Source: a virus
Strand: one strand, 5' to 3'
DNA: 64,000 nucleotides
IMG/VR virus record: IMGVR_UViG_3300045988_080627
Position 1 is the first letter of the stretch. Every line of letters starts with the position of its first letter. The notes under the pieces are model-generated. The model was not told the DNA's origin, made no database searches, and worked only from the letters and a program-made list of their open reading frames with translations. Shown piece after piece: positions 3,319 to 58,000 of the stretch. Both the position numbers and the translations under genes were made by a program.

Positions 3319-3762
3319 GATTCAATTTCTTTAAAGCATCATAAAGTTGCTCCGGTGTTTCCACTTTTACAAGTTCTCCATCTATAGTCCATTCTTTTTC
3401 TACATCTTCATATAACCACCATTCTATATCCTCTACAGTATTTTCATCATTATTAGCTAAAGCTCTTATTAAATCAGTTATAATGAATGTTGTAGATTCA
3501 CCTATAGGAGATTCTCTTAACACACAATTTAAAACATTTTCAAGTTCCTCTAATTTCTTATAATAATTTAAAATATCACGTAAAGAATTACAGAATCTTT
3601 CTTTATCATAAGTTCTGAAAGTAGCATAAGAATCTGATGCTCCTTGTAAGTAATCAGATATTATAATATCTTTAGCATCTTTATTCTTAGAATTAAGTAC
3701 TATGTTATTAGCGTATTGATTACCTAGTACTCTTAATTTCTTTATAAAAGATTCTTTACTTA

Positions 3763-9956: not shown

Positions 9957-10457
9957 TTATTCAGCCTCCTTCCAAAATATATTAGTACACCATGTCATTA
10001 TATGGGTTTTTCTATCTATCTTATAAAATTTTTGATTAGTATTTGGATTATTTAATGGTCCAAATTGTTTTATATAAGGACCCAGCTTAAGATAATCAAA
10101 ATTATCAAGATCTATAACTTCATCAGCTAGTGTTTGTCTACCGCTATACCATCCAATATGTAATTCAGGATAATTTTCTCTAACCCATTTAGCTAATTTA
10201 TTTACTTCCTTTGGATCAGAGTCTCCTCCCATAAATCCTACTAATGTAATTCCTTTATTAGATTCAATTAATCCTTGGAGTCGTTCCAAGGATAATATTT
10301 CTCCAATATCTTTTGACAAATAAGGTGAGTGGCAACCATCGCAGAAACAATTGCAACCACTGATGTTAATACACAGAGAGACTTCATTAGGAAATTCTGC
10401 AAAAGTAACAGCTGTATCAACATATTTAAGCATAGAACTCCTTAATTTTGTTCTCAA
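9957..10457 (-). CDS. nrdG: anaerobic ribonucleotide reductase activating protein (radical SAM)
   Basis: CNCFCDGC is the CxxxCxxC radical-SAM cluster motif. The gene lies immediately downstream of nrdD and a thioredoxin-like gene. Confidence 0.75.
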   Translation of the reverse strand: MRTKLRSSMLKYVDTAVTFAEFPNEVSLCINISGCNCFCDGCHSPYLSKDIGEILSLERLQGLIESNKGITLVGFMGGDSDPKEVNKLAKWVRENYPELHIGWYSGRQTLADEVIDLDNFDYLKLGPYIKQFGPLNNPNTNQKFYKIDRKTHIMTWCTNIFWKEAE

Positions 10458-10689
10458 GCATATCGGCAGTTAAAACTCCAGAAGTTCTTCCTACTTCTAT
10501 ATCATCTTTTATAAATACAAGAGTTGGAAGATTTCTAATATTATATTTAAGAGTAGTTTCTTCCTCTGTTTCTATGTCTACTGTAGTTAAAGTAATATCA
10601 GTATGATTTTCTAATACTCTTTTTAAAATAGGTGCTAAAGCTTTACATTGTCCACACCACTCTGCTTCAAATTTTAATATTTTTTTCAT
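10426..10689 (-). CDS. thioredoxin/glutaredoxin-like redoxin
   Basis: WCGQCK active-site motif in an 87-aa protein. Its start codon overlaps the inferred nrdD exon 2 stop (ATGA). Confidence 0.6.
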   Translation of the reverse strand: MKKILKFEAEWCGQCKALAPILKRVLENHTDITLTTVDIETEEETTLKYNIRNLPTLVFIKDDIEVGRTSGVLTADMLENKIKEFYA

Positions 10690-10786: not shown

Positions 10787-11851
10787 CCTTTTATACCCTC
10801 TCTTTCGAGATATTTAATTTATTAATAACATATTCTTTTATTTCAGCTTTACGTTTCTCTGAAATTTTATCAATATAAGAATTATACAGAGCATCATTAG
10901 CTTCATTCCGAAAATTTTTTAATACTAATTTTTCACAAAGATACCTTTGATAAACGGCTTCTTCTTTTAAGTCTCTATTCATTAAATAATAACGTTGTTT
11001 TTGAAAAGTAAAATCAGTTTTCCACCTATTTCGTTTTTTATCAAAAGATACACCTCGAATACCCGAAGTATTATTAGATTTCTTTTGTAGGTTTAACATA
11101 TTTTCTTGGATAGTTACTTCTCTAAGATTACATTTTCTATTATCATGAGTATCTCCACTAATATGATCAACTTGTTTATCAGTAGGAAGTACCAACCTAT
11201 GAAAATAGATACGTTCTTTTTTCTGGTTTCCTGTAAATAAATAAGGTTTATTATTTTTATAAACAGTTCTCCATTTATGACCCTTTAACTTTGGAACATC
11301 ATCTATATCTAGAATAAATGTTTCCATAATATTTCCATGAGAATCGTAAGTATCTATTTCCGCAAAATTATCTTTTAATCTAATTTCATTATCATCAAAT
11401 ACTCCTCTTGAATTAGTATCTTTAAATTCCCCCAAATCTTCTAAATTGTTCTCTATGTTTTTCACATAGTATTTTTCCAGAAAGTTTATTAAAACTAACT
11501 TTTTTAAATTTTGATGATACTCCACATACTTCACAAAAGCGTTCTTCTGTTATTTTTCTCATATTGTTAAATAATTATGTTAATAATAAGGGAGTGGACT
11601 ATACCATCAACCCATAGGTTGCGCATTGGTAGTCTCTGAGACCCATAAATTTTATATATGTTAAGTATATACAAGACTTGTATAAATTCTAACACTTTAA
11701 CATAAATTAACAATTTATATGTCTGCTGATTGCCCAATCCTAAGACTTATTCATCCTTGAAAATATTTCAAGTATACTTAGGCTCTAAGGGGTTTCCAGC
11801 ATATTCTGCGTTTACTACATAATATTACTATTATGTGGGGCGTTTACGTTC
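10787..11851 (-). mobile_element. group I intron in nrdD (phage T4 nrdD/sunY-like architecture; ORF 3' of core)
   Basis: Minus-strand core elements are present: R-like ggtCTCAGAGACTAccaatgcg (about 11626-11640), S-like ggTATAGTCCactcc (about 11596-11603), and P/Q-like gctggaaacc / caatcagcagac. The terminal G at 10787 abuts exon 2. The HNH ORF occupies the 3' portion. Confidence 0.7.
10791..11534 (-). CDS. intron-encoded HNH homing endonuclease (frameshifted relative to N-terminal zinc-finger segment)
   Basis: Contains the HNH motif DHISGDTHDNRKCNLREVT. A 46-aa alternative-frame ORF (11422..11562) encodes CEVCG...GKILCEKHREQFRRFG, which is the N-terminal zinc-binding motif of this HNH family. 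A 1-nt length change in the C5 run at 11429-11433 (plus strand) would fuse the two frames. Confidence 0.6.
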   Translation of the reverse strand: MKYVEYHQNLKKLVLINFLEKYYVKNIENNLEDLGEFKDTNSRGVFDDNEIRLKDNFAEIDTYDSHGNIMETFILDIDDVPKLKGHKWRTVYKNNKPYLFTGNQKKERIYFHRLVLPTDKQVDHISGDTHDNRKCNLREVTIQENMLNLQKKSNNTSGIRGVSFDKKRNRWKTDFTFQKQRYYLMNRDLKEEAVYQRYLCEKLVLKNFRNEANDALYNSYIDKISEKRKAEIKEYVINKLNISKERV

Positions 11852-13970
11852 ACCCAATAATTCTATCCCATAGACTTACATGAGTACTACCACATTTAGG
11901 ACATTTACTAAATGGCTGTTTTGCTATAAAATGGCACTCTTCACATTCACAATTAGGAATATTAAAAGTAGCATATTTACAACCCACTTTAGCCATAAAT
12001 TTAAGTAAATACTCATATTGTTTCTGACTCAAATGTTCAGATAAATTAAGATGGCAAGCAGAACCTCCATCTAATTCATCAGCGGCGAACTCAGAACTAT
12101 GAAGTATAATTTTATCAAGTATACTTATATGTGTATCGTTAGGTTTAAATATATAACTGGCATATAGATTAGTATCTGTAGGAATCCAATAACCATCAGC
12201 TTTATCTCTATTGTAAAGTTTTACTGAAGCGCTTTCTGCAGGAACTTGCTCTGTATTAAATTGAGCTGTTTTAGTTTTATGTTTCTTATTCTGCTCTTTT
12301 ATAGTACTAAATATTAATCTACAAAATGTTTTATAATAAATATTATTATTACATTCCATTCCTAAGTATTCAGCAGCCTGATTTAAGCCATTAATTCCAA
12401 TAGTTAAATACTGCTTATCAAGATTAATAAAACCAGCATCATAAGCAGCATATAAATGATGGTCTTTGCACCAATGCATTAAGTCGTTATAAGCATATTG
12501 ATACAAATAAACTCTTTCAAGAATATTTTCTATATATTTCTTAATTCCTTCTTGGAAATCTTTATGTGTAATCCAATCTACTGGGAAACAACATTTATTT
12601 GTATTAACATCAATATGGTCTCTATAATCAGACCAAGTATGTTGCCAATCTTGAATAATTCTGTTTAAATTAAGAGTGATGACATTCTTACTACCAGTCA
12701 TTACACCTATTTGACCATTAGTAGTATTAAATGTATTTTCTTGTACTGCATTTTGTAAACGACAACATGAACTTAGACTATCTACACTACGAGACAGATA
12801 AGTAAAGAAAGAATTTCCTTGAGCATATTCATTGCATATAAAATGGAAAGTATCTAAATCTTTAAAATTATCTTCCTTATCTGTTAAACAAGCATAACTA
12901 CATACAGGAAATGTTAAAATACATTTTAATCTTTCTTGGTTTAACCAGTGTAAATAACGTCTTTGTAACCAATTAGTAGAATTCCATTCTGGCTTTGTTC
13001 CATCTGGAAATACAAATTCTCCAAACATACCTTCAAAGAAATATTTATCGAAGAATGAAAAATTTGTAAATGGAGACTGCATTCCTCTAGCTCCTGCTAT
13101 TTGATTAATGGAGTAAGTTACCTGTTGAAAATATTGATCAATTTGACTACCAATAGTCTTTTGTTTTATACAGTAATCTGTAGTTATCTTTGCACTTGGT
13201 TTAAGATAATAATTATTTCCCCATTCTTTTCTACAGAAATAATCCATATACATTAGAAACTCAGGAGTAGCTACTGCTCCTTTAATTTCAGAGGCTAATG
13301 CAAAGTTTAGATTTACATAAATACCACAAAATGAATCTAGATTCTTTGGAACGGCTGATTTACCTCCTAATTTTTCTAATCCAGACAACAAGAAAGGATA
13401 CATAGAAGCTGCCATACAATATGGTTCTCCTACTTGAGAAGATGAATCGTGAGGATACAAAATAGTTTTAAAATCATTCCTCATAACTTTTATATTAAAG
13501 TTAGGATCTCTCTTCTTTACAAAACTTTCCCACCATTCTGTATTAGTAAGTTTATTATCGACTTTATGTATTTCAGCATTTAATACTCCAATGCCTTTAG
13601 TTCCTACATTACTATTATCATCAATAGTAGCATTAGCAGTATTATCAGACTTTACAAAATTATGAATAAATTCAATATCCCTAGTAGCATGATTTCTAAT
13701 ATCTTCACGTTCTTTACGATATAGAATATATTTTTTAGCTACGTCGTAATATCCTAAATCCATTAAGAGTTCTTCAATTTGGTCTTGAATATTCTCAATA
13801 GATTGATCTTCAGTTTCTACTACAGAATTAGTTATCTCAGTAACTGCTCTGTAAATATCTTCGTCTATTGTTCTACTAGAATTTTGGGTAATTCCAAAAG
13901 CCTTTAATACAGCATCTCTAATTTTGTTTCTGTTAAACTCTTCTTTACTCCCGTCTCTTTTTATTACCAT
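11852..13970 (-). CDS. nrdD: anaerobic ribonucleoside-triphosphate reductase, exon 1
   Basis: N-terminal ATP-cone MVIKRDGSKEEFNRNKIRDAV and C-terminal zinc ribbon CECEECH...CPKCGS. The ORF stops right after ...WDRIIG, lacking the glycyl-radical Y. The inferred 5' splice site follows the U at 11852. Confidence 0.8.
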
Positions 13971-14070
13971 AAATAATATTTATAAATTAACATTTTAAAT
14001 CATCTACGAAATAAGCACTATAATACTAGTACTGAACTAATAATATAGTGCTTATATAGTTATTTCAAAA

Positions 14071-15402
14071 TTAAATTTTTGTTTCATCTAAAAAAGAGAG
14101 TGTATCTATTATTTTAGAATTAGAATAATTATAAGGAATTTCTATCAATTCTAATTTTCCCGGATGTTTACTACATATTTTTCTTAATAAATTATCTCTT
14201 CTAATTTGTTTTTGAAAATCTTCTTGGCTATTATGAAAAAATGGGATAAATTCATAATGTTGTTTTCCATTATATTCTATTATATAAATACAATCATTAT
14301 GTTTCACTATGAAATCTACTATAATTTTATTAGAATTGCGTGCTATTTCTTTAGTCTTTATCTCATATTGAAATTTATATTTACAATGATATTTATTTAA
14401 TAAATTTTTTATAAATAATTCTCCTTTACTAGGCTCTATTTGTTCTCTAGCACATTCAGGGCATTTACACCCCTTTAAATGATTGCCTGGGGATTGCTCA
14501 AATTTACCATGTTTTGGACAAATAATAGTAATTGGAGTTTTATAATTTATATAATTAACTTCGTTGTAATCATATTTCCAACCATGAACTTCTCTAGCTT
14601 TTCTTATAAAATCTTCTTTAGTTAAAGTATAAGATTCTATAGCACAATCTGGACAATATCCATGATGGTATATTAAAGTTGATGCTAGTATGCTAAAATC
14701 TCCATGTTTTGGACAAGTTAAAATTACTGAATTAGTTATTCCAGTATAAACAGTTTTATTTGTAGTATATTCGGGATGAATTTTTTCACATTCTTTAATA
14801 AATTCATCTTGCGTAAATCTGAAAGTATTAGTACATTTAGGACATCCATTTTTACAATTTAAATGCTGGTAAGGTAACTACCAAAATTCTCCATGTTCAG
14901 GGCATATAATACAAACTTTTTCCCTACTACCTTTAAAATCTACTTTTGAATAATCAAATTTATAATTATATTTTTCATTAGCAGCTTTTACAAAATCCTC
15001 TTTGGATCTAATTACTTTAAAATCTTTACTTTTTCCTCGACATTCCTTGCAAGCACATTGTCCTTTTAAATGATTACTAACTGTTTGCCAAAACTCGCCA
15101 TGTTCAGGACATATGATACACACTTTATTATTAGTACCCGTATAAACTACTTTGGAATAATCATATTTATTATTCCAAATTTTATTTGCTTTTCGTATAA
15201 AGGTATCTAAATCAAATTTTTTACCTGAACAAATAGCACAGCCTCGTCCCTATAAATGTGAATTTGCTTCTTGTACAAACACTCCATGAATAGGACATAT
15301 TATCTTAACTTTATCTTTTGATCTAGAAACTTCTACTAGGGAATAATCATACTTATTTCCATGAATTTCTTGAGCTTTTTTAATAAAATATTCTTTATTC
15401 AT
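14071..15402 (-). CDS. zinc-ribbon repeat protein with C-terminal DUF559/Vsr-like endonuclease domain; contains two in-frame TAG codons
   Basis: One 444-codon frame (ATG 15402 to TAA 14071) carries five tandem modules of about 63 aa (KYDYSKV...IICPxHGxFxQxxxxHLxGxxCxxC). The C-terminus VDFIVKHNDCIYIIEYNGKQHYEF...RRDNLLRKICSKHPGKLELIEIPY matches the DUF559/Vsr-like PD-(D/E)xK pattern. In-frame TAG codons at 15250..15252 and 14878..14880 split the ORF track into 14071..14307 and 14878..15123. Confidence 0.55.
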
Positions 15403-36085: not shown

Positions 36086-36933
36086 AATATATAAAATTTT
36101 TAAAATGTATACAAACGAAAAAAGTCGAGCTTATTGCCCGACCAAACATCAGTAAGTACCCCTTTGGTACTTACAAAGTAACTAATAAGATTAAATAATT
36201 GGAGGCATGTATAATCTAGAATATTGAGTAACATACCAAATCCAACCCTTCTTAAATGCTTTTAAAGTTCTTTTTAAAATTTTCATCATAATAAATCAAA
36301 TTTAAAGTTTAACTTATAAAATATCTAGGAGGAGAGTTTTAAAAAATTAAGAACCCCAGGGAAATCTCCCTGTTAAAGACAATCTTATGGTCTTTATTTT
36401 TATTATTTAGGATTCTGTAGGAATGCAAAAAACATCGAACCATTCCAGTTCGTAGGTTCTACGACACCTAATAGGCGAGTGTGCATCGTTGAGAGGCACC
36501 CTATAAGTTACGTTGCTCCTGTAGCTAGCGTTCTAGAGCTTTGTTATAGTGTGGGATGTGCGCCTTTAGCTACACTAATCCTGCATTATTTATAAGATAT
36601 CTTTCCAACGCATGAAGAATAAGAAATTTTTTTATTATTATCTTCTAATATATAATAATAATCCTCAAATGTTTCTTGAATACCTTTAAAAACATATTCT
36701 TTATCCATCCACATAACAGGTTTTTCCTACATTAAGTAGTTCTTCTTTTACCCATTTTGGAGCATCCTTAGGAACATCATCTACAGAATAATAATTTCCT
36801 ATTACTTCATACATTAATTTATTTATTAATTGTTGGAAAGTCTGCATTAAAATAGGAACATCTTCAGTTTATACTTTAATGTTTCTAAATTGTCTGTATC
36901 AATAGTTATTTTCATAAATATTTAATTTAATAG

Positions 36934-40793: not shown

Positions 40794-42347
40794 TTATACA
40801 TTTACATTGGTGTTCTCTATGTCGCCGTTAACGTTAACATTCTTGTTAACCTTAGCTTCAATAGTGTTAGCCTTCATAATGTCTGCCATATCTACACCTG
40901 TAGCATCTTTTACAATGTCACGAGTCTGTTTAATAATAGCAGGTACATTACCAGAAATACCAGAAGCCTCAGAACCATTAGTTCCATAAACTGTCATATT
41001 ACCAATCTTACTCATAGGCTCGGCAATATACTTAGCCATATCAGGAAGAACTTTCTCATTAAGTTTAGAAAGCATGTCAATTACAGCAATAGAGCCATAC
41101 TTATTATATGCTTCAGCCTTTTTCTGCATAGCTTCAGCTTCTGCAAGACCTTTAGCTCGTACACCTTCAGCTTCAGCTAAAAGTTTAGCCTTAGTACCTT
41201 CAGCTTCAGCAGTCAAAGTCTGCTGAGTAGCATATGCTTCAGCTTCACCTTTAGCACGAATACCTGCTGCTTCCTGCTCCTGAGAATAACGATTAGCTTC
41301 AGCTTTAGCTTTTACAGCCTTAGCAGTTTGCTCTGCTTTATACGCCTCAGCTTCAGCCTCACGCTTTTGTTTTTCCAAAGCAGCCTGAGCATCAATCTCT
41401 GTCTGATACTTATCAGCATCAGCCTTAGCATTTACATCTGCAAGATACTCATTCTGCTTAATCTTAATCTTCTCCTCAGACAAGGTCTGCTCTTTACGAG
41501 TCTTTTCAATATCAGCATCTACAGTTTTGGTATTAATAGTTTTCTGCTGCTCCTGCTGCTGAATTTTATATGCAGCATCAGATTCAGCCTTTTTAATATC
41601 AGACAATCTCTTCAGTTCAGCTCTCTTAATAGCCAACTCATTATTACGTTCAGCAATAATGGTATCAGCCTTTACTCTGGCTTCATTAGCTTCATTATCA
41701 GCCTCAGCCTGAGCCTTAGCTACATCTCTATCAGCATTAGCACGTGTAATCTTAGCATTCTTCTGAATAGCTGCTGTATTATCAGCACCCAAATCACGAA
41801 TCAAGCCCTTCTCATCAGTAATATTCTGAATATTGCAAGACAAAATCTCAAGACCTAACTTAGCCATATCAGGAGCTGCTTTTTTCTGAATTTCATCAGA
41901 GAATGCGTCTCTATCAGTATTAATTTTAATCAAGTCAAGAGAGCCTACTACTTCACGCATATTACCTTCCAAAGAATCTTTTACCTGAGCAGCAATCTGA
42001 ACAGGATTCATATTCAAGAAGTTCTTAGCTGCAAGTCTAGTGCCTTCTGTATCAGGTTTTACCCTAACTTTACATACGGCATCTACCATTACATCTAAGA
42101 AATCATGAGTAGGAACTGGCTGTGAAGTCTTAACATCAACTGTTACTTGACCAAGATATACTTTATCCAATCGTTCAAGTACAGGAATTTTTACTCCACC
42201 ACTACCGATAAGTACTCGTGGTTCTCTACGAAAACCTGAAAGAATGTATGCCATCGAAGGAGGAGCTTTAACATACATTGTAGCAATAATAACAAGCAGT
42301 ACAATAATAACGATTGCGATAACACCAATAAGAACTAAATGTTCCAT
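40794..42347 (-). CDS. SPFH/Band-7 (flotillin/stomatin-like) membrane protein with long Ala/Glu/Lys-rich coiled-coil tail
   Basis: N-terminal TM LVLIGVIAIVIIVLLVIIATMY, followed by an SPFH-like region and a very long AEAEA/KAK repeat-rich coiled coil. GC3-rich codon usage and a strong terminator suggest high expression. Confidence 0.55.
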   Translation of the reverse strand: MEHLVLIGVIAIVIIVLLVIIATMYVKAPPSMAYILSGFRREPRVLIGSGGVKIPVLERLDKVYLGQVTVDVKTSQPVPTHDFLDVMVDAVCKVRVKPDTEGTRLAAKNFLNMNPVQIAAQVKDSLEGNMREVVGSLDLIKINTDRDAFSDEIQKKAAPDMAKLGLEILSCNIQNITDEKGLIRDLGADNTAAIQKNAKITRANADRDVAKAQAEADNEANEARVKADTIIAERNNELAIKRAELKRLSDIKKAESDAAYKIQQQEQQKTINTKTVDADIEKTRKEQTLSEEKIKIKQNEYLADVNAKADADKYQTEIDAQAALEKQKREAEAEAYKAEQTAKAVKAKAEANRYSQEQEAAGIRAKGEAEAYATQQTLTAEAEGTKAKLLAEAEGVRAKGLAEAEAMQKKAEAYNKYGSIAVIDMLSKLNEKVLPDMAKYIAEPMSKIGNMTVYGTNGSEASGISGNVPAIIKQTRDIVKDATGVDMADIMKANTIEAKVNKNVNVNGDIENTNVNV

Positions 42348-42417
42348 AAATTTGTAAATGTTTAAATAATAAAAATTAAATATCTAAGAATTAACTGATG
42401 TTAGTTCCAAGGGGTGT

Positions 42418-43305
42418 TTATAATTTATAATTTACAAGACCTGTAGCCTTACTTGCAGAGTAACAACTATTAATTAAATATATTCTGGCATTTCCATACT
42501 CAGTCATAGTTACTAAATACTTCTCTTTAGTATTTATTATTAATATATGATCTTCTTCAAAATAGTCTCCAGGTTTCAGATACTTTAATTCTTTATCTTC
42601 TATAGTAGAACCAAAGTTATCACTAAATTTAGTATGGCATTCATTAATGAATTTTCTTTCTTCATTAGAAAGATTTTTAAAATCTTTCTTTTCTAGTTCC
42701 TTATAATCATTATAAGTTTTTAATAAGTTCTTTATATTCTCAGAAGTAAGCTCTAATTCACAATTTCTAACTTGTATTACTCTATATAAATAAGAGAACT
42801 TAGAGAACTCAATATTAAAGGTTTCTTTAATATAAGGAAGGGCTTCTACTCCATGAATATTGATTTCAGTTGCTATAGCTTTAATTAAATCTATAGTAAT
42901 AATATTCATAGAATGAGTTAACTCTATAACTTTCTCTATAGCATTTTTATTCTCTAAAATATCATTAAGAATTTCTCTAGTAATTTCTTCTGGAAGATTA
43001 TCAAAAGACTTTTTATATCTTATTCTAGAAGGTCTACCAAGAAGGTTTGAATCTACCTTTAACTCATTAGTAGTAAGTAGAAATACCCTACGATAAATAG
43101 AGTTATAAGTACCATCCATAAAAGAGAGAACATCAGAAGAATCTTCAAATTATTTCTCATATTCATCAAAGAAGAAGATACAGTTAAAATTAATAGCTGT
43201 GGATAAATATTCTATTAATTTACTATTAGTATTACCGCCCATTGATTGTACTAAGATTACAGGGAGCTGTAAATGATTACAAAGTACTTTTGCGGTAACT
43301 GTTTT
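42418..43305 (-). CDS. classical AAA ATPase, exon 2 (Walker B, sensor 1, Arg finger); contains an in-frame TAA
   Basis: Frame from 43305: KTVTAKVLCNHLQLPVILVQSMGG...NCIFFFDEYEK-TAA-FEDSSDVLSFMDGTYNSIYRRVFLLTTNE...GRPSRIRY.... The TAA at 43150..43152 lies between Walker B and sensor 1. The track ORF 42418..43119 starts at the next Met. Confidence 0.45.
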
Positions 43306-44616
43306 CAGTATTGTTATCATATAGCTTTTTATCTATATTTCTATAACTTCTTATTTGTTATAGCTCAGCGTACCTTTTTCTCCATTCAAATAATTGGGAG
43401 AGCGGGCGCTCTTGGAAGTATTATATTCTCTTATAAGAGTTTCAACTTCTACGCGTTACAGTGATGAAGATTCGTTACTATCTTCATTTACCACGGGATT
43501 AACATCACAGCCTTCCCCGTTTTCACTCGCTAATAATTCTAAACATTCCTGTTTAGAACGGCAAGTTTTAAAAATTTTATATCTTTTATATTTTCTGTCT
43601 AAATAAATGGAACTATTACTATATACTAAGTCTAAAAAATCTAAAGAATTTGTTAAAGATATATTTAATACTAGAGTATTTTCCATTCTTGGATCTTTTA
43701 CTAAAGAACTTTTTATATTAAAATTACTTAATATTGATTGTATCTTTACTAAAAATTGCTTAGTTCCTAGAAATGAAACTTTTGGTAAAATTTTAGTTCT
43801 CTAATAGTAACTTAGGCATCCATCACCATCAAAGTATCCTCTAATAAAAGGAATTTCTAATTCTTCAGAAATATTAGGAAATTGAAGAGTTAAACTTTTT
43901 CTTGGAGTACATCCTAAATTATTTAGAGTATTCCATAAGTGCTTATTAACTATTCCCCAGCGACACCTTAAAAAAGTTTTATCTTTATTCTTAACTTCCC
44001 CTAATTTGACATTATCTTTATTATGCTCCATAAACTTATTAAATTTATGTAAGTGTTCAATATCAGAGCCTTTTAAAGATAGTTCAAAACCATTATCTCT
44101 TGATGAAATATAACCATCAGCAAATATAAATCCTAACCAATAAGCTTTCTCCTCTGTATCTATAGCATCGAAGATATGCTCATTAAATTTAGTTTCATTT
44201 TGATGATTGATTATTTCAATCCCTTTAGCTTTTAATTTTCTAGACAAAGTTTGGATAGAAGTATGATACTCTTTAGCTAATTTAGATAAACTTATCCCTT
44301 GCTCATATTTAGGAATAATATCTTTATCTAGATCAAATAATAATTTGTTTTGCTTATTAACTACTTCAATCCCATTTCTTTTTAGAAATGAACTTATAGT
44401 AGAAGTAGAAATTCCAACTTCTTTACCAATCTTAGTACAGCTTAATCCATCTATTAAGTACAAAGTCTTAATTTTTTCTCCTAATTCTTCATTAATTACA
44501 AATTTCATATTCATATAGTTAAAATTAATATTACTATAATACATATGAAATTTTATTAAATCCAAATAAATATAAAATTTTTAAAAATTTAAGCTTACTG
44601 AAATTGCTTAAATTTT
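43306..44616 (-). mobile_element. intervening sequence (putative group I intron) in AAA ATPase P-loop carrying a LAGLIDADG endonuclease
   Basis: 1311 nt lie between GTG and KT of Walker A. The element ends in G at 43306 and the upstream exon ends in U. It contains ORF 43801..44565 and shares a roughly 32-nt 3' motif with the helicase intervening sequence. Core R/S elements were not found by eye. Confidence 0.45.
43801..44565 (-). CDS. LAGLIDADG homing endonuclease (two-motif) with N-terminal HTH repeats
   Basis: YWLGFIFADGYIS and FIRGYFDGDGCLS are two LAGLIDADG motifs. Repeated HTH-like segments (LSKLAKEYHTSIQTLSRKLKAKGIE) precede them. Confidence 0.7.
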   Translation of the reverse strand: MDLIKFHMYYSNINFNYMNMKFVINEELGEKIKTLYLIDGLSCTKIGKEVGISTSTISSFLKRNGIEVVNKQNKLLFDLDKDIIPKYEQGISLSKLAKEYHTSIQTLSRKLKAKGIEIINHQNETKFNEHIFDAIDTEEKAYWLGFIFADGYISSRDNGFELSLKGSDIEHLHKFNKFMEHNKDNVKLGEVKNKDKTFLRCRWGIVNKHLWNTLNNLGCTPRKSLTLQFPNISEELEIPFIRGYFDGDGCLSYY

Positions 44617-44883
44617 ACCAGTTCCTTTGATTCCATCAAGCAGAATACCTAAATTTCCTGTAGTATTTTCATACGTCTTTAAAACATAATCAATAAATTT
44701 TTGGTTTAAACCATACAGTTTGTAATCAAACGTAAAAGACTCTGCAATTTTACTTAAGTAAAATCCAGTCATTGATTCTTTAACTTCATAAATTCCTTTA
44801 GGTAATCCTTCAGGGTGAGATACTGTTGTTGAACTACCCTGACTAAAAGTATTACCATCTTGTAACCAAATTTGTTTACCCAT
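44617..44883 (-). CDS. classical AAA ATPase, exon 1 (ends in Walker A GIKGTG)
   Basis: The ORF ends ...LLDGIKGTGKI*. The splice inferred after ggt (U) joins exon 2 aaa aca gtt..., giving GIKGTGKTVTAKVL. Confidence 0.5.
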
Positions 44884-49380: not shown

Positions 49381-50413
49381 AAACTCCGCCGCATAGATAT
49401 ATTTTATTACTCAGAAGATTATCCACCACACTAATATCTACAATTTTAGTTTTTATAGTTTTAAATATCTACCAGTATAAATGATTTTATCAGATACAAT
49501 TTCACCTTTAGTATTTATAATATACGTAGCGCCTTTAGGGATTATAAAAGTTGCTATATAACCATCATTTTCAAAAGACATAAGCATTCTTCTATTTCCT
49601 AATATTATACTTTTGCATCTATATACTCCCTTAGCTACACGAAAGGTAGAATTACATATAAATTGTACTCCAGTATAACTATGATAAGCTTTTTCTATCT
49701 TAAGCGTTTCATACCTTCGAGCTATCTCATCATATTCAAGGGTTGGTATTTTATATAGTACATTTGCAATATAATTAAAGTTTTTAATGATAGATACACA
49801 CGATTGCTTATTAGCACATGTAACTATTTTATAAATTTTAATATCTTTATCTGCAACTTGATATTTTACATTTCTTAAAGCTTCTATCCAACACATAATT
49901 ATTTAACTATTTTATAATCACCAACTTCAAATCCTTCTTCAATAGAACTTATGGTCCAATTTTCATCCCAATTATCTACATCATAAGGACATATTAATTC
50001 AATTTTAGCATAATTAGATGCTTTATCTAATTCTAAAATTCTATAATATAAATAACTTACTTTAGTGAAATTAAATATATCACCAACTTTTAACTTTATT
50101 TTTTCCATATGTTAATGTGTTATTTAATTAAACAATAAAAGAGCCTAATTAGATTAACTAATTAGACTCTTTAAAACAATAATATGATCAGAAAAAGAAT
50201 GTTACGAAGTTCTATTATAAATGTCCTAAATTATTCTTCTAGTTAAGTTAAAATGATTAGCTACTTTTTCTCCAATTATGTAGTATTTTATTCATTTACT
50301 TCTTTTATAGAAGGATAATTTTTACTTTTACATTTATCTGAATAATATATTTTCCTTTTCACAATTCTAACAAATAGAGTGTGTCCCAGATTTTCCTTTA
50401 ATTTTCACAGTAG

Positions 50414-50485
50414 TCTTGAGGCTGGGACTTGAACCCAGATTGGATGTGTATAAGACATCGAGCCTAACCATTAGCCGACCTCAAG
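50414..50485 (-). tRNA. tRNA-Ile(UAU)
   Basis: Acceptor cttgagg/cctcaag, anticodon stem gatgt/acatc, loop ctTATac, T loop ttcaagt. Confidence 0.6.
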
Positions 50486-51413
50486 GATTAGTGTATAAGA
50501 CAGAGCGGATATCTGAGCAATTTAAAAAGTATCTGAGGATTGTTACTTCCTCTCCTTCTTATTTATTGTATAAAATGAAACTATTTTTCCAAAACTATTA
50601 CATTTTAAACTCACAATAGGATTATTACAAGATTTATAAGCAATCTAAGAGAGACTCGAACTCTCTGAAATCCCAATAGTCCTAACTAAATAGAACTATT
50701 TGATTATTTAGACTAACCACTCATACAGAGGATTTATAGATTAACTAATAAGAGCGTCTTCTCACATGGCTGAAAAGTATGTTAAAAACTAGAGTGTAGC
50801 TAATTATATACAAATTGAGGCACTAATGAGTATATTTAATTAGACTAACTTCCACCGCTCACAGTTGCTTCCTATTAGACCAAATCTCTATTAAATAGCG
50901 TTCTATTTATAAAGATTAAAGGATTCGAACCCTTGTTTCTCTTATTATATATATAATTAACTAAATATCTTCTTGTATCTCGATTTATTTCACTAACTAA
51001 TTTAAACCTTATTTCGTGTTTATTTCATTAGCTATTCTAAATTTATGATAATATCCCTTATTAATTCCTTTATCTATTAAATAGATAAAAGTGGGCACAA
51101 TCTATTCGGGATTATATTCCGCAATCGCTCCTTTCTCACAGCTGATAGAGAGATTTATAAGAACCAAATACTTCCTCTATGAGGAGAGTCAATAAATAGT
51201 TAACTATGTAAATGTTAATTCTATTATTTCTATCAATTATAACCAATAGTATTTAATGTATTCTAGTATTTAATGTATTAAAAATAAACTATCTATCTTC
51301 ACAGACTGATAGCTTACTAACATAGTATACCTATGAAACAAAATGTATTTAAATAAAATGCCTTACAATAATAAATAAATGAATCCTTAATCTACATTTT
51401 AAAATAATAAAAG

Positions 51414-51479
51414 GAAATGTGGACAGATTCGAACTGCCAACCTCTGGTGACCTACCTACTAAACTTGAGCTACACATTT
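51414..51479 (-). tRNA. short (66-nt) tRNA-like gene/pseudogene
   Basis: Acceptor aaatgtg/cacattt pairs and the T arm ggcagTTCGAATctgtc is present. The D and anticodon region is too short for a cloverleaf. Confidence 0.25.
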
Positions 51480-51689
51480 CTATTTATACTATGTTATATA
51501 GCCTTATTTAAAACTCATACTACTTTCACAAGCAATATGAGTCAATGCTTAAGTCTTTTATAGACTTACTATAAACAATTACAAGAAATTCATCAATTTT
51601 CACAAATTAATAAATTAATATGAGTTTAAAAATACTTATCAATACCTAAATAATCACTTAATCATAATTTAGTAGCTCAGACAAGCTAA

Positions 51690-51796
51690 CTTAAATAAAG
51701 GGATTCGAACCCTTAATCCTCAAGAAATATTTAATGACGACTTCAGAGACGCATTCCGTCAATCTGCTGCTGTATACCAATTCCGCCATATTTAAG
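51690..51796 (-). tRNA. over-long (107-nt) tRNA-like gene
   Basis: Acceptor cttaaat/atttaag pairs perfectly and the T arm aagggTTCGAATccctt is present. About 30 extra nt lie between the D and T arms (insert or intron-like). Anticodon not assignable by hand. Confidence 0.3.
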
Positions 51797-51893
51797 TTAG
51801 CTTATAATCCGAACTATTTAGATTCTTTTTAGGATTTTATGAGAATTAGTGTTACCCAAATAGCACCACGTGGAGGTTTCTCATTTGCTATTC

Positions 51894-51979
51894 TAGTTCG
51901 GACGGGATTCGAACCCGTACGGTCATTCCTGACCAAGGGATTTTAAGTCCCTCGTGGCTACCCATTACACCACCGAACC
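51894..51979 (-). tRNA. tRNA-Leu(UAA), type II
   Basis: Acceptor ggttcgg/ccgaact, anticodon stem aggga/tccct, loop ctTAAaa, long variable arm, T arm acgggTTCGAATcccgt. Confidence 0.7.
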
Positions 51980-53007
51980 TATAAACAACTAATTATCTGC
52001 TAGTTGCCAACAATATTTATAAAACTATTATGGTATTACAATTGTTTTAATATATTTGTAGCTATGTATAATGAAATATTCACAGTTGTATGAATATCAT
52101 TATTTAACTTTAAGATATATATATTATTTTCATCATTCTTTCTAGTTATCTCAGATATATATTTATGATTTATTAAAAATCCTTGTGTTGCAAGAATAAA
52201 ATCAATACATAAAACACGTGAAATATTTTTCAATGAACAGCATATAGTAACATAATTGCCATGAACATCTATTATAGTACTATATTTACCAGATGTTTTT
52301 ATACATACAATGTCATTTATGTTTATCTGTCTGTATTCTCGTCCCTTAAACACTAAAAATGTATCAGAGTCAATTTGTATTGTTTTTACTTCCATTATTT
52401 ATGTAATGTTTTAAAAGTCTATTAAATGTTACTTTAGATTCTTCATAGAATTGATCTCCTTCAATAGTTACACCAAATGCCCATAGTAATTGATGGAATC
52501 TCATATCAGGATATTCTTGAGCTTTTGCTCTAATTATATCAAGAATCTTTAGATTATACTCTTGTCTATTCATATTTCTATTTAATTAGCCCATAATAAA
52601 ACGAGCACTTACAATATTTTCAGGATGATAAATAGTTTTAGCTAATCCTTTTATTGCCCATTTCTCAATAGCAGAATGTTTAACTCCGCTTTTAAGTTCA
52701 TGGTAAAACATTAGTTCATAAGCTTCCCCACTTTTAAAAGTTATTTTGATTTTAAATGTAGGTCTTACTCCAGTTCTAATGAGTTCATCCATTTCTTCCT
52801 CAGTTACCATATAACTGAACAAAGGATTGGAAAGATGTTCTTTTTTATACTCAGCCTCTAAATTAGACAGAGCTGTTTTAGAACTTTTAAGTACATTTTT
52901 ACATCCAAGCTTTTCAGCACTGTCTATATATGCTAATAGCTTAGTTTTTCTAATAAAATAATCTTGTCTTGTCATAATTTATCTATAATTAATGTGTTAA
53001 TAATTTG

Positions 53008-53106
53008 TCAGGCGTAGAGATTCGAACTCCTTAGGCTTATTCCCGTACGAGCTATTCACCAATCTAACCCCTCGTAGATAGTGGTTCCCACACCGCAAGT
53101 CGCCTG
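53008..53106 (-). tRNA. over-long (about 98-nt) tRNA-like gene
   Basis: T loop TTCGAAT with a weak stem; acceptor caggcga/acgcctg pairs 6 of 7. The internal region does not fold into a standard cloverleaf. Confidence 0.25.
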
Positions 53107-53112
53107 TAATTG

Positions 53113-53184
53113 TTGGACTACTCAGATTCGAACTGAGGCTAACAGAACCAAAATCTGTTGTGCTACCGTTACACTATAATCCAA
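53113..53184 (-). tRNA. tRNA-Gln(UUG)
   Basis: U1-A72 acceptor tggatta/tagtcca, D arm gtg-taacggtag-cac, anticodon stem acaga/tctgt, loop ttTTGgt, T arm ctcagTTCGAATctgag. Confidence 0.7.
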
Positions 53185-53364
53185 TAATGACTTAGTAAAG
53201 ACCCAAAGTTTCCTTATTTAATCCTGACTAACTTAGTAAAGCAATTGGGTTTGTCTTTACCTTTAAAATCCAGTTTCTAAGTCTGAAATACTTAGTAAGC
53301 GCAAATACTAAGTTATAGTCGGCGCTACTTTTACGCATTTTGTGACACTAAGTATTATAATTTG

Positions 53365-53436
53365 TTGAACTACCCAGATTCGAACTGGGATTGAGAGTTC
53401 TAAAAACTCTAATAACTACCATTACTCCATAGTCCA
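53365..53436 (-). tRNA. Gln-like tRNA with anticodon UUA (ochre-suppressor type); weak D stem
   Basis: U1-A72 acceptor tggacta/tagttca with one G-U pair. Perfect anticodon stem agagt/actct with loop ttTTAga. T arm cccagTTCGAATctggg. The D stem (gag/tta) pairs poorly. Confidence 0.5.
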
Positions 53437-53446
53437 TTATTAATAG

Positions 53447-53534
53447 CGGAGAAAGAAGGATTCGAACCTCCGAGCCACATAATATGACTAACATCTTAGC
53501 AGAATGTCACTTTCGACCACTCAGTCATTTCTCC
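53447..53534 (-). tRNA. tRNA-Ser(GCU), type II
   Basis: Acceptor ggagaaa/tttctcc, anticodon stem acatt/gatgt, loop ctGCTaa, long variable arm, T arm ggaggTTCGAATccttc. Confidence 0.65.
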
Positions 53535-53645
53535 AATAGAGCTTCCTATCTTCACAGACAAGAAGCCTTTCCAACTCTTTAACGTTTTTACATAATCCGC
53601 TGATTATGCACAATTTAAAACCATTTAATTTGTTTACGTATGGCG

Positions 53646-53720
53646 CAGCACTAACAAGATTCGAACTTGTTTTTCCATCTTTTAAATAAGTGGCGTCTTA
53701 ACCAGGTAGACGATAGTACT
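53646..53720 (-). tRNA. tRNA-like gene with enlarged (11-nt) anticodon loop
   Basis: Acceptor agtacta/tagtgct and T arm acaagTTCGAATcttgt are good. The anticodon arm is ccac-ttatttaaaag-atgg; the anticodon cannot be assigned. Confidence 0.3.
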
Positions 53721-53798
53721 AAGTAGACTCTCTATCTTCATAGACTGAGAGTCTTGTGTATTACAAATGAATACTTTTAACAACTTAAGAACGAATAG

Positions 53799-53871
53799 TG
53801 TTCCCTACGAGATTCGGACTCGTGACCCACAGATTAAAAATCTGTTGCTCTGCCAACTGAGCTAAGGGAAC
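53799..53871 (-). tRNA. tRNA-Lys(UUU)
   Basis: Acceptor gttccct/agggaac, D arm gctc-agttggcag-gagc, anticodon stem acaga/tctgt, loop ttTTTaa, T loop tccgaat. Confidence 0.7.
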
Positions 53872-53883
53872 TAATATTGCATA

Positions 53884-53952
53884 AGGAGTAGGATTCGAAC
53901 CACGACATCAAGTTTTTCAGACTTGCGCTCAGACCATCTAAGCTATATCTCC
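53884..53952 (-). tRNA. tRNA-Phe(GAA)-like with degenerate T stem and acceptor (pseudogene?)
   Basis: Anticodon arm caagt-ctGAAaa-acttg is clean. The T-loop flanks pair only 2 bp and the acceptor strands are not complementary. Confidence 0.3.
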
Positions 53953-54353
53953 ATATCCCATATTTCTATAAAGGAGAATAGTGGTAACACCTACCTATAC
54001 TAATAGGTTTATTAGTTAGGATTTATCCAAACACACTAACAACATGGTTAAATTCAAATAAAATGATAGGGTCTTCTCAAATCATAGCTGGTGATTGTAG
54101 AAATTCTACATAAATGAGTATTTTAAACGAAACTATTATTTAGTTAGCTACTCTATCTAATAGTTGAAGGATTTTACCTTCATCTCTATCATAATTGTAC
54201 TAATCTGGCGGCTTATTTAAAATAAGTGTCCATATTTTATGCATATTATTTTGGACTAGATTCCTCTTTATTCATTTCTCACAGCTGATAGAATAAAATA
54301 TAAAATAAGGATATCCCATACTTCCTCTTCAGGAGAGTGATTAATACAATTTG

Positions 54354-54435
54354 TACGGTAGAGAGGATTCGAACCAATGACCTTCTCGAAATGACCTATT
54401 ATAAAGAGATGCTCTAACCACTGAGCTACTACCGT
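54354..54435 (-). tRNA. tRNA-like gene (82 nt) with internal 8-nt direct duplication and weak T stem
   Basis: Acceptor acggtag/ctaccgt and D arm gctc-agtggtta-gagc are good. aggtcatt is duplicated before the T loop, and the T stem attgg/cctct pairs 3 of 5. Confidence 0.3.
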
Positions 54436-54866
54436 AAGTACTAGTTTATATCGGAAACTAGTAAAAAACGTTAACACATTATTATGGAAACTTAAAAACC
54501 AAATGAAAACATGGTATCTACGGAAGTGCTAAGAGTTACATAAGGAATGTTATCTCTTACTGTAATAAAGACAACAAAACGTCTTTCTGTACTAATTTCT
54601 TTACAATAATGAATCTCTATTTCATCCTTTGTTTCTGAGGAATATACTTTTAGTACCATTTTACCAAACTTACTATTACTAAAAGTAATAGTTTTTCTAG
54701 CTTCATTATATACTATTGAAGTTTTAATATAGAATGTATTACTCCACTCACCATCCTGATAAACGGTGATAGTGTTGTAATTAAACGCATGAGCTATTGT
54801 AGTTAATACAATAAAACTCATTAATAAAATAATCTTTTTCATACTACTCAATCTTTTTAATATTAG

Positions 54867-54948
54867 TACGGAGTAGAGGATTCGAACCAATATAACCCCT
54901 AATGATATTATGTTGCTATGGGTGCTCTAACCATTAAGCTAACTCCGC
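54867..54948 (-). tRNA. tRNA-like gene (82 nt), same weak T arm (attggTTCGAATcctct) as previous
   Basis: Acceptor gcggagt/actccgt and D arm gctt-aatggtta-gagc. The anticodon region cccat...attaggg is non-canonical. Confidence 0.3.
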
Positions 54949-54955
54949 ATATGTG

Positions 54956-55040
54956 TGAGGGAAGAGGGACTCGAACCCTCAAGAACATATTGTTAACAGT
55001 TTAGAAGACTGTGACGCTTCCAATTACGTGCTATTCCCCC
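54956..55040 (-). tRNA. tRNA with anticodon UCU (Arg) but long hairpin variable arm
   Basis: Acceptor gggggaa/ttccctc, anticodon stem acagt/actgt, loop ctTCTaa, variable hairpin aacaatatgtt, T arm gagggTTCGAGTccctc. The D arm is atypical. Confidence 0.4.
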
Positions 55041-58000
55041 AAGTGCAACTAATTGTCTGCTAGTTGCCAACAATATATATGAACTTTACAGAATTACTCT
55101 ACTATTTCAGTTTCAGATATATACCATTTACCATTAATTTTAACGGCTTCTATCTGTTTATTGTTTACTGTCTCAAGGAATATTACATCTTCCAAAGTTC
55201 TGTTGAGAGAAATAATATATTTATTAGCCTCTTCTTTAGAATTAACTATACGAGACTGAATGCTATTGTTAATAACACTATATATCTTTCTTAAAACTTT
55301 CATAATTATAGTTTTTATAAAGTTAATAATAAATAGAGCATTGTTTCACAACAACACTCTACTATAGTTTCAAACATTTATTGTAAAAAGTAAAAATTTG
55401 TTAATTTCAAATTTTATAGTTTAAATCATCATATTTTACAAATTTTAAACTTTAATACAATACAAAGACAATTTTATAGTATGTCTGCAATATCTACATA
55501 ATCATCTTCTGGATCTGGACAATCTTCAATATCACATGTTGTATCATTCTCATTATATTTTGAATGATAAGCAATGTAATTTAACTTATTAATAATATTG
55601 TTTACTTTAGCTAATCTATTATAAGTAGAATCTAAAGCCTGATTCAAAGCATTTGCAACAACTTTACACATAGTGTGCATAGCTTTATCTCTTACAATTC
55701 GATTAGCTACTACTTGGTCGTCCTTATCATTTTTACTTAAAGTAATTTTAGCAACGACTATAATAGTAGAATTATCAATAGTAAGTCCCCAAGAAGTTAA
55801 GTTTTTAATGAAAATCTTTCTCTCTTTAGAACTTGCAATTCTAAGAAATACAGAAGTATCTGCACTTGAAACTTCCACATTAGCTCCTTCTAAATAGTCC
55901 ATTATGTACTCTAAATCACAAGACATAGTACAAAATGTATTGTTACCAACTCTCTCAATGTTGTATTTTACTTTCTTAATTGTCTGCATTTTCTTTCGTT
56001 TTAAATTCTTTGAACAATTTAATGATACCTTTTAAAGCATATTCTGGAACATCGCCACAAAGACATCCACCATTTACATACAGCTTAACATTACCATATG
56101 TAAATTTAGTAATCTCAAGATTTCCTTCAGCACCATTAGATTCATTCTCTAACCATATTGGAAAATCTTTCCATTCATCTACAGTTAATGATTCATCAAT
56201 AACTGAATGTTCTTCAATAGTTGGTTTTAAAGCTTTAAAATGCTTTAATACTAGAGCTTTATGTTTCTCATCTGCAAACTCTAGCTTCTTTGGTTTCTTA
56301 CTAAGGAAGAAATAATCTTCTTTAATCTTAGCTACAACATTTTTTTGTTTGATATTAAATAATAATTCCATAATTTTAAAATTAATAGTTATATTTATTT
56401 AGTTCAAGATTAACTTCAGAAATTAATCTAGATTTATATGTAGCTAATGCTGTTTTATAAGTTTCAGAATCAGCTTCATAATGATCTTCGATATATTCTA
56501 AAGTTCCTTCTTTGAATATTACAGTTTTAGATGATAATTTATCTAATAGAAATATTATTCCATTAGATGTTAAAGATTTACCTACAGTAAATCCTTTACT
56601 ATACATATTAATATGTATATACAAACAATCATAGAGACTTAAAGCATTGTTTATATTACTTTTTATGTCTCTTAGTTGGTCGAGTTTTACTTGTTTTACT
56701 ATTCTATTATGACCAGTAATAGTCCAAATCACGCATAGAATAAAACAAAGTATAATAATTATTAATAAACTTTTATCCATATATTCTTGGTTCTGTATTA
56801 ATATTTTTAGAACTAATATATTGATAAAGCCATTTAACATTATTTACAATAAAAATATTACCTTTTATATCTGTAAATAATATTTTCTTGTACTTATCCA
56901 TAATTAGCCCTGATAACACTAGTAAAGGGTTTCTAATATATACTGCAAACGTTCCTCCTTTCATGCTTTCTCCAGAAATAGTTCTTAATTTATTATTAAG
57001 ATATTGATATTTCTTGTTAAAAGCATTAGCATAGTTAGAATGCATAGTTTTAGAAACATGATATTTTGCATCAATCTGTGCTGATAGCATTATTACTAAT
57101 TCTCCCAGTGTATTATGATTCATTGTTACCATTGATAGATTCCTCCTAAAGATAATTGTGCTTGTAATGTTTCTAAGTCACTTTTAATTGGAAGTTCTTT
57201 ACCGTAGGTAGTTTTATACTCTCGGCAAACTTGTGCAATAGTTTTCTTTTTAGAAAAGACTAATGCTGTAATCTTAATAATGTCTTTTGTTTCCATTTTT
57301 TAAACTATTTAATTATTAATAATGTGCCATCACCTTTCTCATTTAAGAGTCTGCTACTTTGGATATGCAGGATGTAGGTTTACACTTAGAGTCCTATTTT
57401 CACAAACCGAACTCTAATTCTTGTCTTTGTAATCTATAGTGCCTATGGACATAATAGATTACTAAAGTAACTAGCCCTATCTATCACAGACCGAACTAGC
57501 AAAAATGATCTAAACTGTATATTGTTGATAACTATTCTATTTTAAAAATACATAAGTCTTGTCTTATGATTAACCAATTTACTTTCCAAGATGTCAACTA
57601 TTTATTTATACTCTATAGTACTAGAGTGCAGCATCATTCTTTTACTTAATACACTTCACTTTTTAAAGATTCATATCCTTCATATAATGGGAACTCTGAA
57701 TTAAGAGTAATCTTAATAAATACTTTATCATCAATAGTTACAAGTCCTACAGCTTTAATATTACGATTACTATTATTATAACTAGTACAAATAACTGTAT
57801 TAGGAGTAACATCTGTCACCCCTTTAAAACCCATATTATCAAGAATTTTACATATAGGTGTTAAGTAATAAATTTTACCTTCTTTGATAACACAAGAAGA
57901 AAATGGAATTACTTTATCACCTATATGATAAGTTTTAGCGTCATGGTCTATTGTGAGAGCCTTACCTGCAAGACTCTCACAACCTGATATAATTTTTTTA

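Follow-up and report, generated by a model that had tools for sequence, protein, structure and literature searches.

The locus described here raises the question of whether a phage can carry tRNAs (transfer RNAs) for a codon that it still uses as its main stop signal, and what such tRNAs would do. The sequence analysed is a 64,000-nt stretch (hereafter the window) of IMG/VR record IMGVR_UViG_3300045988_080627, which comes from a gut phage with a genome of about 173 kb; the ENA assembly of the same genome is ERZ28579479 scaffold_18 (173,343 bp), and L numbers (e.g. L048, L061) denote loci in relatives or flanks. Two tRNA genes of the window, Sup1 and Sup2, have the ochre-type anticodon UUA, and an AAA ATPase gene contains an in-frame TAA, a combination in which a sequence-only reading had seen a possible TAA/TAG-to-Gln code. 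Half of that idea stands: TAG is read as glutamine in the late genes, and TAA is not recoded. Our favoured explanation, held at about even confidence, is that the UUA tRNAs are functional suppressors reading both UAA and UAG in a TAG-recoded phage, while the TAA in the ATPase is a private nonsense mutation that is perhaps partly rescued. Nothing here amounts to a new genetic code; local suppression is the most that could be involved.

The first of the two genes, Sup1 (53365..53436, minus strand), had been proposed as a 72-nt tRNA with a U1-A72 acceptor end, a perfect anticodon stem and the anticodon UUA, and ARAGORN and Rfam bear this out. ARAGORN labels it tRNA-Stop(tta) at 53364-53436 on the minus strand, and Rfam model RF00005 is matched over positions 1-71 with 39.3 bits, above the gathering score of 29. 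The 72 nt begin with the acceptor pairs U1-A72, G2-C71 and G3.U70, the anticodon stem AGAGU/ACUCU consists of five Watson-Crick pairs closing the loop UUUUAGA, and the T arm, CCCAG-UUCGAAU-CUGGG, has a perfect stem. Apart from its D stem, Sup1 shows all the features of a canonical cloverleaf, namely a 7-bp acceptor, a 5-bp anticodon stem, a 7-nt loop, U33, a purine at position 37 and UUCGAAU.

The descent of Sup1 from a glutamine tRNA, which the sequence-only reading had also suggested, is confirmed by gene order. A canonical tRNA-Gln(UUG), the second Gln copy (53113..53183, minus strand; detected by ARAGORN and scoring 63.6 bits with Rfam), lies 181 nt from Sup1; the acceptor and T arm are common to Sup1 and the phage Gln tRNAs, and the anticodon stems of the two neighbours differ by two double compensatory swaps. 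The tRNA-Ser(GCU) gene (53447..53534, minus strand) serves as the landmark that fixes the positional orthology of both UUA tRNAs. Directly after it stands Sup1 in the window, and tRNA-Gln(UUG) in L002, L007 and at least 20 other relatives. The closest orthologues (L050, L052 and L056), whose flanks are 94.5-96.5% identical, have the anticodon UUG and differ from Sup1 at eight positions, A36 among them. Several of the remaining differences bring Sup1 nearer to a regular tRNA: its D loop contains GG (G18G19), against AG in the UUG orthologues, A11-U24 replaces their C.C, its T stem CCCAG/CUGGG replaces one with two G.U pairs, and its Rfam score exceeds theirs of 33.4 bits. Being more tRNA-like and higher-scoring than the UUG genes at the same place, Sup1 is therefore not a low-scoring pseudogene, an option that the sequence-only reading had kept open. 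Judged from these alignments, Sup1 is a redundant tRNA-Gln paralogue with a predicted UUA for UUG in this strain only. In E. coli, G3.U70 and A73 together confer alanine identity, and since both G3.U70 and the discriminator A73 occur in Sup1 and its UUG orthologues (the canonical Gln copy has G3-C70), the amino acid carried by Sup1 is uncertain.

Sup2 (53646..53720, minus strand; 53645-53720 by ARAGORN) scores 39.0 bits with Rfam over model positions 1-71, likewise above the gathering score, and is the conserved member of the pair. It occupies the Glu slot of the array, and its acceptor and D arm (GGCACUAUCGUCUA-CUGGU-A-GACG) are still of the Glu type. Among Glu(UUC) genes, those of L022 and L023 are most closely related to it and share its stem CCAYU/GRUGG; compared with them, Sup2 has A in place of C36 and a loop flanked by two added nucleotides, one on the 5' and one on the 3' side, which can pair as U-A. 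The resulting arm (GACGCCACTTATTTAAAAGATGG) can be written CCACU-U/AUUUAAA/A-GAUGG; it includes an additional U-A pair and a mismatched C.A, and its loop AUUUAAA keeps U33, the anticodon UUA and A37. The acceptor, D arm and T arm of Sup2 agree with canonical expectations, and the 7-nt loop requires the extra U-A pair. Comparison thus indicates that Sup2 was made from tRNA-Glu(UUC) by C36 to A together with an inserted U-A pair that would preserve the 7-nt loop.

Conservation of Sup2 extends well beyond the window. Seven contigs from different samples have exactly the same anticodon arm (the window, L048, L054, L055, L049, L057 and L051), and the T stem has undergone a compensatory change from C-G to U-A in L055 and L049. 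Across 15 Glu/Sup2 sequences, 98.3% of cells in the cloverleaf are paired, compared with 87.3% in shuffles; seven pairs are altered on both sides, and the sole unpaired cells are those of the conserved C.A of Sup2. Sequence conservation, compensatory change and pairing together imply that Sup2 is a maintained gene rather than a fresh pseudogene, and by the same comparison it is the conserved one of the two UUA tRNAs, kept in a subclade of strains. Exact-match scans of IMG/VR and JGI metagenome contigs with the UUA anticodon arms gave no tRNA match.

According to ARAGORN, the window contains 13 tRNAs, all on the minus strand, and the two described above are those with the anticodon UUA. In 26 IMG/VR relatives and MT835539.1 the array runs Arg, odd tRNA, Phe, Trp, (Lys, Asn), Glu(UUC), Ser(GCU), Gln(UUG). 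A third member of a presumed glutamine trio (UUG, UUA and CUA) had been claimed, and this part of the proposal finds no support, because no tRNA(CUA) could be found: none was detected in the window by ARAGORN (default, intron mode or lowered thresholds), none by Rfam (the whole window at the gathering score, and 50000-55200 at E <= 1-5), and none in MT835492.1 and MT835539.1 (176 kb in all). A search with a degenerate-letter (IUPAC) pattern for CUA anticodon loops returned 299 matches where 302 were expected, i.e. no signal. A 104-nt tRNA-like element at 53003-53106, which contains 'UCUAC', was considered as the CUA gene and rejected, its fold being no better than that of shuffled sequences (z = -0.31).

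Other tRNA-like elements of the array deserve mention in their own right. Two conserved genes on the minus strand, 54354-54435 and 54867-54948 (Rfam 50.4 and 41.2 bits), combine a regular acceptor and D arm with mismatches in the T stem, an anticodon loop that is 11-21 nt too long and the common motif AUAAUA..UCAUU. Depending on the T run of the strain, the former is labelled Ile(tat), Tyr(ata) or Stop(tta) by ARAGORN. This 82-nt odd tRNA was examined as a suppressor of the whole lineage and discarded, as the 'Stop(tta)' call made in many relatives shifts with the T run (3, 4 or 5) and the motif UAUAA stays constant. Degenerate tRNA-like remnants lie in and around the array on the minus strand (53003-53106, 51690-51795, 51414-51479, 50910-50970 and 53884-53952), with a GGUUCGAAUCC-type T arm, acceptor-like stems and anticodon arms that are broken or missing; one is Phe(GAA)-like with a truncated T stem.

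The reading of TAG as glutamine is evident in the late genes (L019-L021, i.e. MT835492.1 62-121 kb and MT835539.1 27-55 kb, and L061 11600-18700). In the late module of MT835492.1, open reading frames (ORFs) of at least 150 amino acids span 1.6 kb under the standard code and 46.3 of 49 kb with TAG as sense, the longest then reaching 3401 amino acids; in that of MT835539.1, the corresponding total rises from 3.4 to 22.8 kb. The same holds for the genome under study: the 9 kb past the right end of the window (L061) contain late genes with in-frame TAGs, one of which stands at the Gln of the lytic-transglycosylase (SLT) motif, ATGWF[TAG]FI. Between strains, TAG exchanges chiefly with CAG (33) and CAA (18), out of 104 non-TAG pairings. 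The early/replication module, to which the 64-kb window corresponds, is nearly compatible with the standard code; within it, a TAG at 14878..14880 (minus strand) interrupts a DUF723 zinc-ribbon repeat protein, where EFW-stop faces EFWQ and KFEQ in paralogous repeats, and a further one occurs at 43801-43803 (minus strand) in a LAGLIDADG ORF inside the intron of the ATPase gene, an ORF that itself needs TAG read-through. The lineage thus reads TAG as Gln in its late genes, and TAA and TGA stay terminators.

The in-frame TAA of the ATPase gene is real as far as the available assemblies go. It occupies 43150..43152 on the minus strand, at codon 141, and the minus-strand translation of 42418-43335 (...IFFFDEYEK, stop, FEDSSDVLSF...VFLLTTNE) places it between Walker B and sensor 1, exactly as had been read; the surrounding peptide is DEYEK-X-FEDSSDVLSFMDGTYNSIYR. 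In the exon-2 product, residues 6-100 match Pfam AAA (PF00004; E = 6.1e-07), with the stop at residue 57 inside the match. Within Walker A (GIKGTGK|T), the coding sequence is broken by an intron of 1.3 kb (43307..44614, minus strand), in which the LAGLIDADG homing-endonuclease ORF occupies 43456-44544 and Rfam detects no group I intron at the gathering score. Exon 1 (44615..44883, minus strand) ends in the Walker A motif GIKGTGK, and exon 2 (42418..43306, minus strand) runs from the end of Walker A to the stop codon, including Walker B and sensor 1. Splicing was checked against L048, which has an intron-less allele of 384 amino acids; the exons of the window splice to the same 384 amino acids with a single stop.

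In relatives this codon is an invariant GAA. The residue at position 141 is Glu in 28/28 relatives, comprising MT835492.1 (92% identical, GAA), 15 IMG/VR sequences, 11 proteins of about 95% identity or more and L048, so that the Gln expected at a recoded site is not what the TAA replaces. The gene is intact in all 28, which indicates that it is under selection and removes truncation in related phages as an explanation. A sequencing error had been allowed for as well. Over 20.4 kb, which take in both UUA tRNAs and the TAA, Logan ERR209473_231 matches the window at 100.000% identity, and ENA ERZ28579479 scaffold_18 is 100.000% identical over 12.7 kb with the tRNAs, the TAA lying in a separate stretch of the same scaffold; since the TAA is present in both assemblies, which may rest on the same reads, assembler error is unlikely. 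The truncated 233-amino-acid ATPase product is recorded in four source collections. On the strength of these alignments, a nonsense mutation from GAA to TAA that is private to this strain is the best account of the TAA, rather than codon reassignment.

Across the genome, TAA behaves as a terminator. Among 73 non-overlapping minus-strand ORFs of the window, 50 end in TAA, 19 in TGA and 4 in TAG, and one late ORF in L061 ends in tandem TAA TAA. The median distance from a TAA terminator to the following in-frame stop is 6 codons, and tandem stops follow 7/50 TAA-terminated genes, a raw count on which nothing is built here. The evidence for this genome covers about 83 kb, that is, the window plus 19 kb of flanks. 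Comparison of coding frames with relatives yielded one in-frame TAA in these 83 kb, other stops lying in a decayed gene at about 36.7-36.9 kb; six-frame comparison had given false in-frame stops from non-coding or antisense frames, and matches were accepted only if both strand and frame were those of the coding sequence. ORF totals under alternative stop sets are uninformative for TAA, as spurious ORFs open on both strands at 29% G+C. TAA recoding as a genetic code is accordingly rejected for the roughly 83 kb examined.

The search for further in-frame TAAs had been suggested as a check; it found none in the 19 kb of same-genome flanks and one in a relative. L063, on the same contig as L048 and thus with Sup2 present, reads ...YNDQPIVAWL[TAA]LNSILAHNWN... 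in a conserved late gene, the rest of which is conserved, and the corresponding codon is TAG (Gln) in L061, L065, L002 and L062. This exchange is a hint that UAA and UAG may be interchangeable.

How, then, might the UUA tRNAs act? U34 would pair with A and, by wobble, with G, so Sup1 and Sup2 would be expected to read UAA and UAG in the manner of classical ochre suppressors. With hundreds of sense TAGs to be translated and no CUA tRNA, both would help to decode TAG, and they would also give low-level read-through of TAA, which should be cheap because the next in-frame stop is typically so close. Read-through by Sup2 (probably inserting Glu) or Sup1 (Gln, possibly Ala) could then let the ATPase TAA persist, and a Glu-charged Sup2 would put back the wild-type ATPase residue. 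In this plausible scheme, expression of the UUA tRNAs, their charging, wobble decoding and rescue of the ATPase are each inferred.

A number of observations weigh against suppression of this kind. The D stem of Sup1 is weak, with three wobble pairs, one A-U pair and a bulge, a degradation that had been noticed from the outset. Its UUA anticodon was found in one strain only, exact-match scans having returned nothing from IMG/VR and one chance non-tRNA match from the JGI contigs. In Sup2, the C.A mismatch is conserved and the anticodon stem departs from the standard with 6 bp (or, drawn otherwise, the loop has 9 nt). The ATPase TAA is followed by T, and TAA-T is a poor suppression context by the E. 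coli context rules. Most TAG-recoded relatives have Glu(UUC) and Gln(UUG) at the two slots and no UUA tRNA at either; because these relatives are equally recoded, the UUA tRNAs are not required for TAG decoding in the clade. Finally, about 4 nonsense polymorphisms occur in about 300 kb without UUA tRNAs, against 2 in-frame TAAs in about 112 kb of Sup2-bearing sequence. They comprise a TAA at an invariant Glu in L017 (17596-17598), whose array, L047, has Glu(UUC) and Gln(UUG), and TGA codons at invariant Trp residues in L013 (6340-6342 and 17580-17582, two sites in one strain) and L011 (6238-6240), both without UUA tRNAs. As TAA is not enriched in Sup2 strains, an in-frame TAA alone cannot show decoding.

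The strongest competitor to functional suppression, a distinct possibility though one we rate clearly below it, is a coincidence of decay, in which Sup1 would be a drifting Gln copy changed from G36 to A under A+T pressure, Sup2 a non-decoding or altered relic of tRNA-Glu, and the TAA an ordinary loss-of-function mutation in a dispensable gene, with no suppression at all. The array is indeed full of degenerate tRNA-like remnants, G36 to A is the expected kind of change in a genome of 29% G+C, an intact tRNA-Gln(UUG) is available 181 nt off, the UUA of Sup1 is private to one strain, nonsense polymorphisms are similarly frequent where UUA tRNAs are absent (L017, L013, L011), and the mismatch and irregular anticodon arm of Sup2 would suit a relic. 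Against decay, the anticodon arm of Sup2 is base-for-base the same in seven contigs and is accompanied by T-stem compensation and a loop of 7 nt that retains U33 and A37; Sup1 surpasses its UUG orthologues in tRNA features, with G18G19, A11-U24 and a perfect T stem; and an AAA gene that is intact in 28/28 relatives is a selected one. A different role altogether, which we consider unlikely, would be manipulation of the host or anti-defence, the UUA tRNAs reading through host TAA stops or serving as replacements or decoys for tRNAs hit by host anticodon nucleases. Conservation of Sup2 although almost no phage gene appears to need TAA decoding would fit such a role, and there are precedents in proposals that 'unused' phage suppressor tRNAs harm the host (PMC12386605) and that altered anticodon loops let phage tRNAs escape defences that target tRNAs (PMC10264068). 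It leaves the in-frame TAA and the TAG/TAA exchange of L063 unexplained.

Two further explanations would give TAA itself a coding role. The weaker form, to which we likewise assign a small probability, holds that the UUA tRNAs would make UAA and UAG synonymous, sense-capable codons late in infection, with a reassignment of UAR (UAA and UAG) to Gln/Glu just starting; in-frame TAAs would then arise by G-to-A drift at TAG, as at L063, and also at GAA, as in the window. The stronger form, a true reassignment of TAA in this strain with UAR as Gln/Glu resembling ciliate code 6, is very improbable. Two cognate UUA tRNAs, a TAA within a conserved domain and the TAG-to-TAA exchange in the Sup2-bearing relative speak for it, and it would be a kind of recoding not reported in phages so far (PMC13037316). 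It has to contend with the 50/73 genes that end in TAA with tightly packed neighbours, with late genes of this very genome ending in TAA (one of them in the tandem stop), with a single in-frame TAA in about 83 kb, and with the finding that the spurious ORF length gained by treating TAA as sense is equally large on both strands, coding and non-coding alike. Functional suppression alongside ordinary TAA termination thus remains the explanation we prefer.

With regard to its general features, the window has a G+C content of about 29% overall (26-37% per 2-kb window), and nearly all of its long ORFs lie on the minus strand. Minus-strand genes (at 11850-13979, 9957-10469, 40794-42383, 4507-6027 and 2065-3321) include those for the anaerobic ribonucleotide reductase NrdD with an apparent NrdG activase adjoining, an SPFH/flotillin protein, a PIF1/RecD-type helicase and an ATP-dependent DNA ligase; a sigma-factor gene is cut off by the left end. 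Past that end, L058 has a gene for DNA polymerase A and, after it, a LAGLIDADG_2 ORF. About 8 kb past the right end, in the same genome, a protein of 643 amino acids (L061 18691-20622) has an apparent intein-like insert (C...LGDGS...DTDGY...THNT); some of its homologues have Pfam LAGLIDADG_3, and a homologue search gave only a 96%-identical representative on a 4.4-kb contig. The decayed gene at about 36700-36900 (minus strand) has multiple stops and indels and is intact in relatives, e.g. L012 and L009. In eight IMG/VR relatives (L005 9205-9538, L008 7895-8228, L010-L014 and L016), ARAGORN predicts a transfer-messenger RNA (tmRNA), about 330 nt long and lying upstream of AAA exon 2 at a distance of 0.5-3 kb, with the tag ARVINMTPVSYAIAA or ARVINMTPAYQAAA, each followed by a stop; in the window, neither ARAGORN nor Rfam predicts one.

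The significance of the locus depends on whether the UUA tRNAs are active. If they are, they offer a testable candidate for wobble decoding of TAG in a phage without a CUA tRNA, as well as a case of natural informational suppression that may mark the beginning of the loss of TAA as a stop. If not, the case shows that decay in A+T-rich tRNA arrays can produce ochre anticodons and that single in-frame stops are common polymorphisms in metagenomic phage genomes. Should an incipient reassignment of UAR be true, TAA recoding would be seen for the first time in a virus of bacteria, and an answer would be offered to how TAG-recoded phages without a CUA tRNA decode TAG.

The closest functional precedents are E. 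coli supB (glnU) and psu2+ of phage T4, tRNA-Gln(UUA) ochre suppressors that read UAA and UAG. Sup1 resembles them in being a tRNA-Gln converted from UUG to UUA by a single G36-to-A change beside an intact Gln copy, and it is phage-encoded like psu2+; by analogy, it would be expected to read UAA and, by wobble, UAG. In contrast to these laboratory-selected mutants, Sup1 is a natural variant of a metagenomic phage, has G3.U70 and A73, which make the inserted residue uncertain, and is a putative suppressor.

A second family of precedents is formed by the code-15 gut phages, in which TAG is read as Gln with a tRNA-Sup(CUA), as two studies describe (Borges et al., bioRxiv 10.1101/2021.08.26.457843; Peters et al., PMC9523058). 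In the former, a phage tRNA(CUA) is given for about 40% of code-15 genomes, some 60% having no recognisable suppressor tRNA, and TAA-suppressor tRNAs are tallied with TAG and TGA ones by code (Borges et al., bioRxiv 10.1101/2021.08.26.457843). The present phage shares with them an A+T-rich genome, a gut origin, TAG as Gln mostly in late genes, an early module compatible with the standard code and suppressor-type tRNAs in the array. It departs from those with tRNA-Sup(CUA) in that only UUA suppressor-type anticodons, and no CUA, were detected; it also differs in that one of its two suppressor-type tRNAs derives from tRNA-Glu, not tRNA-Gln, and in that equally TAG-recoded close relatives do without UUA suppressor-type tRNAs. 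The 'idle' suppressors of Zeta crAss-like phages (PMC12386605) are similar in being conserved across diverged strains while the matching stop is hardly ever in frame, whereas their anticodons are CUA or UCA and that of the present tRNAs, UUA, matches the phage's own main terminator. With ciliate code 6, in which TAA and TAG are both Gln, the locus has in common a Gln-type tRNA(UUA) together with sense TAGs, and TAG and TAA appear interchangeable at one site (L063); unlike in that code, TAA is still the dominant terminator and in-frame TAAs are not seen genome-wide, so the phage is not a member. A 2026 survey of jumbo phages found no TAA-recoding phage (PMC13037316). Set beside these systems, what is new here is that a TAG-recoded phage in which no CUA tRNA was detected has ochre-type anticodons, one of them on a tRNA of Glu descent.

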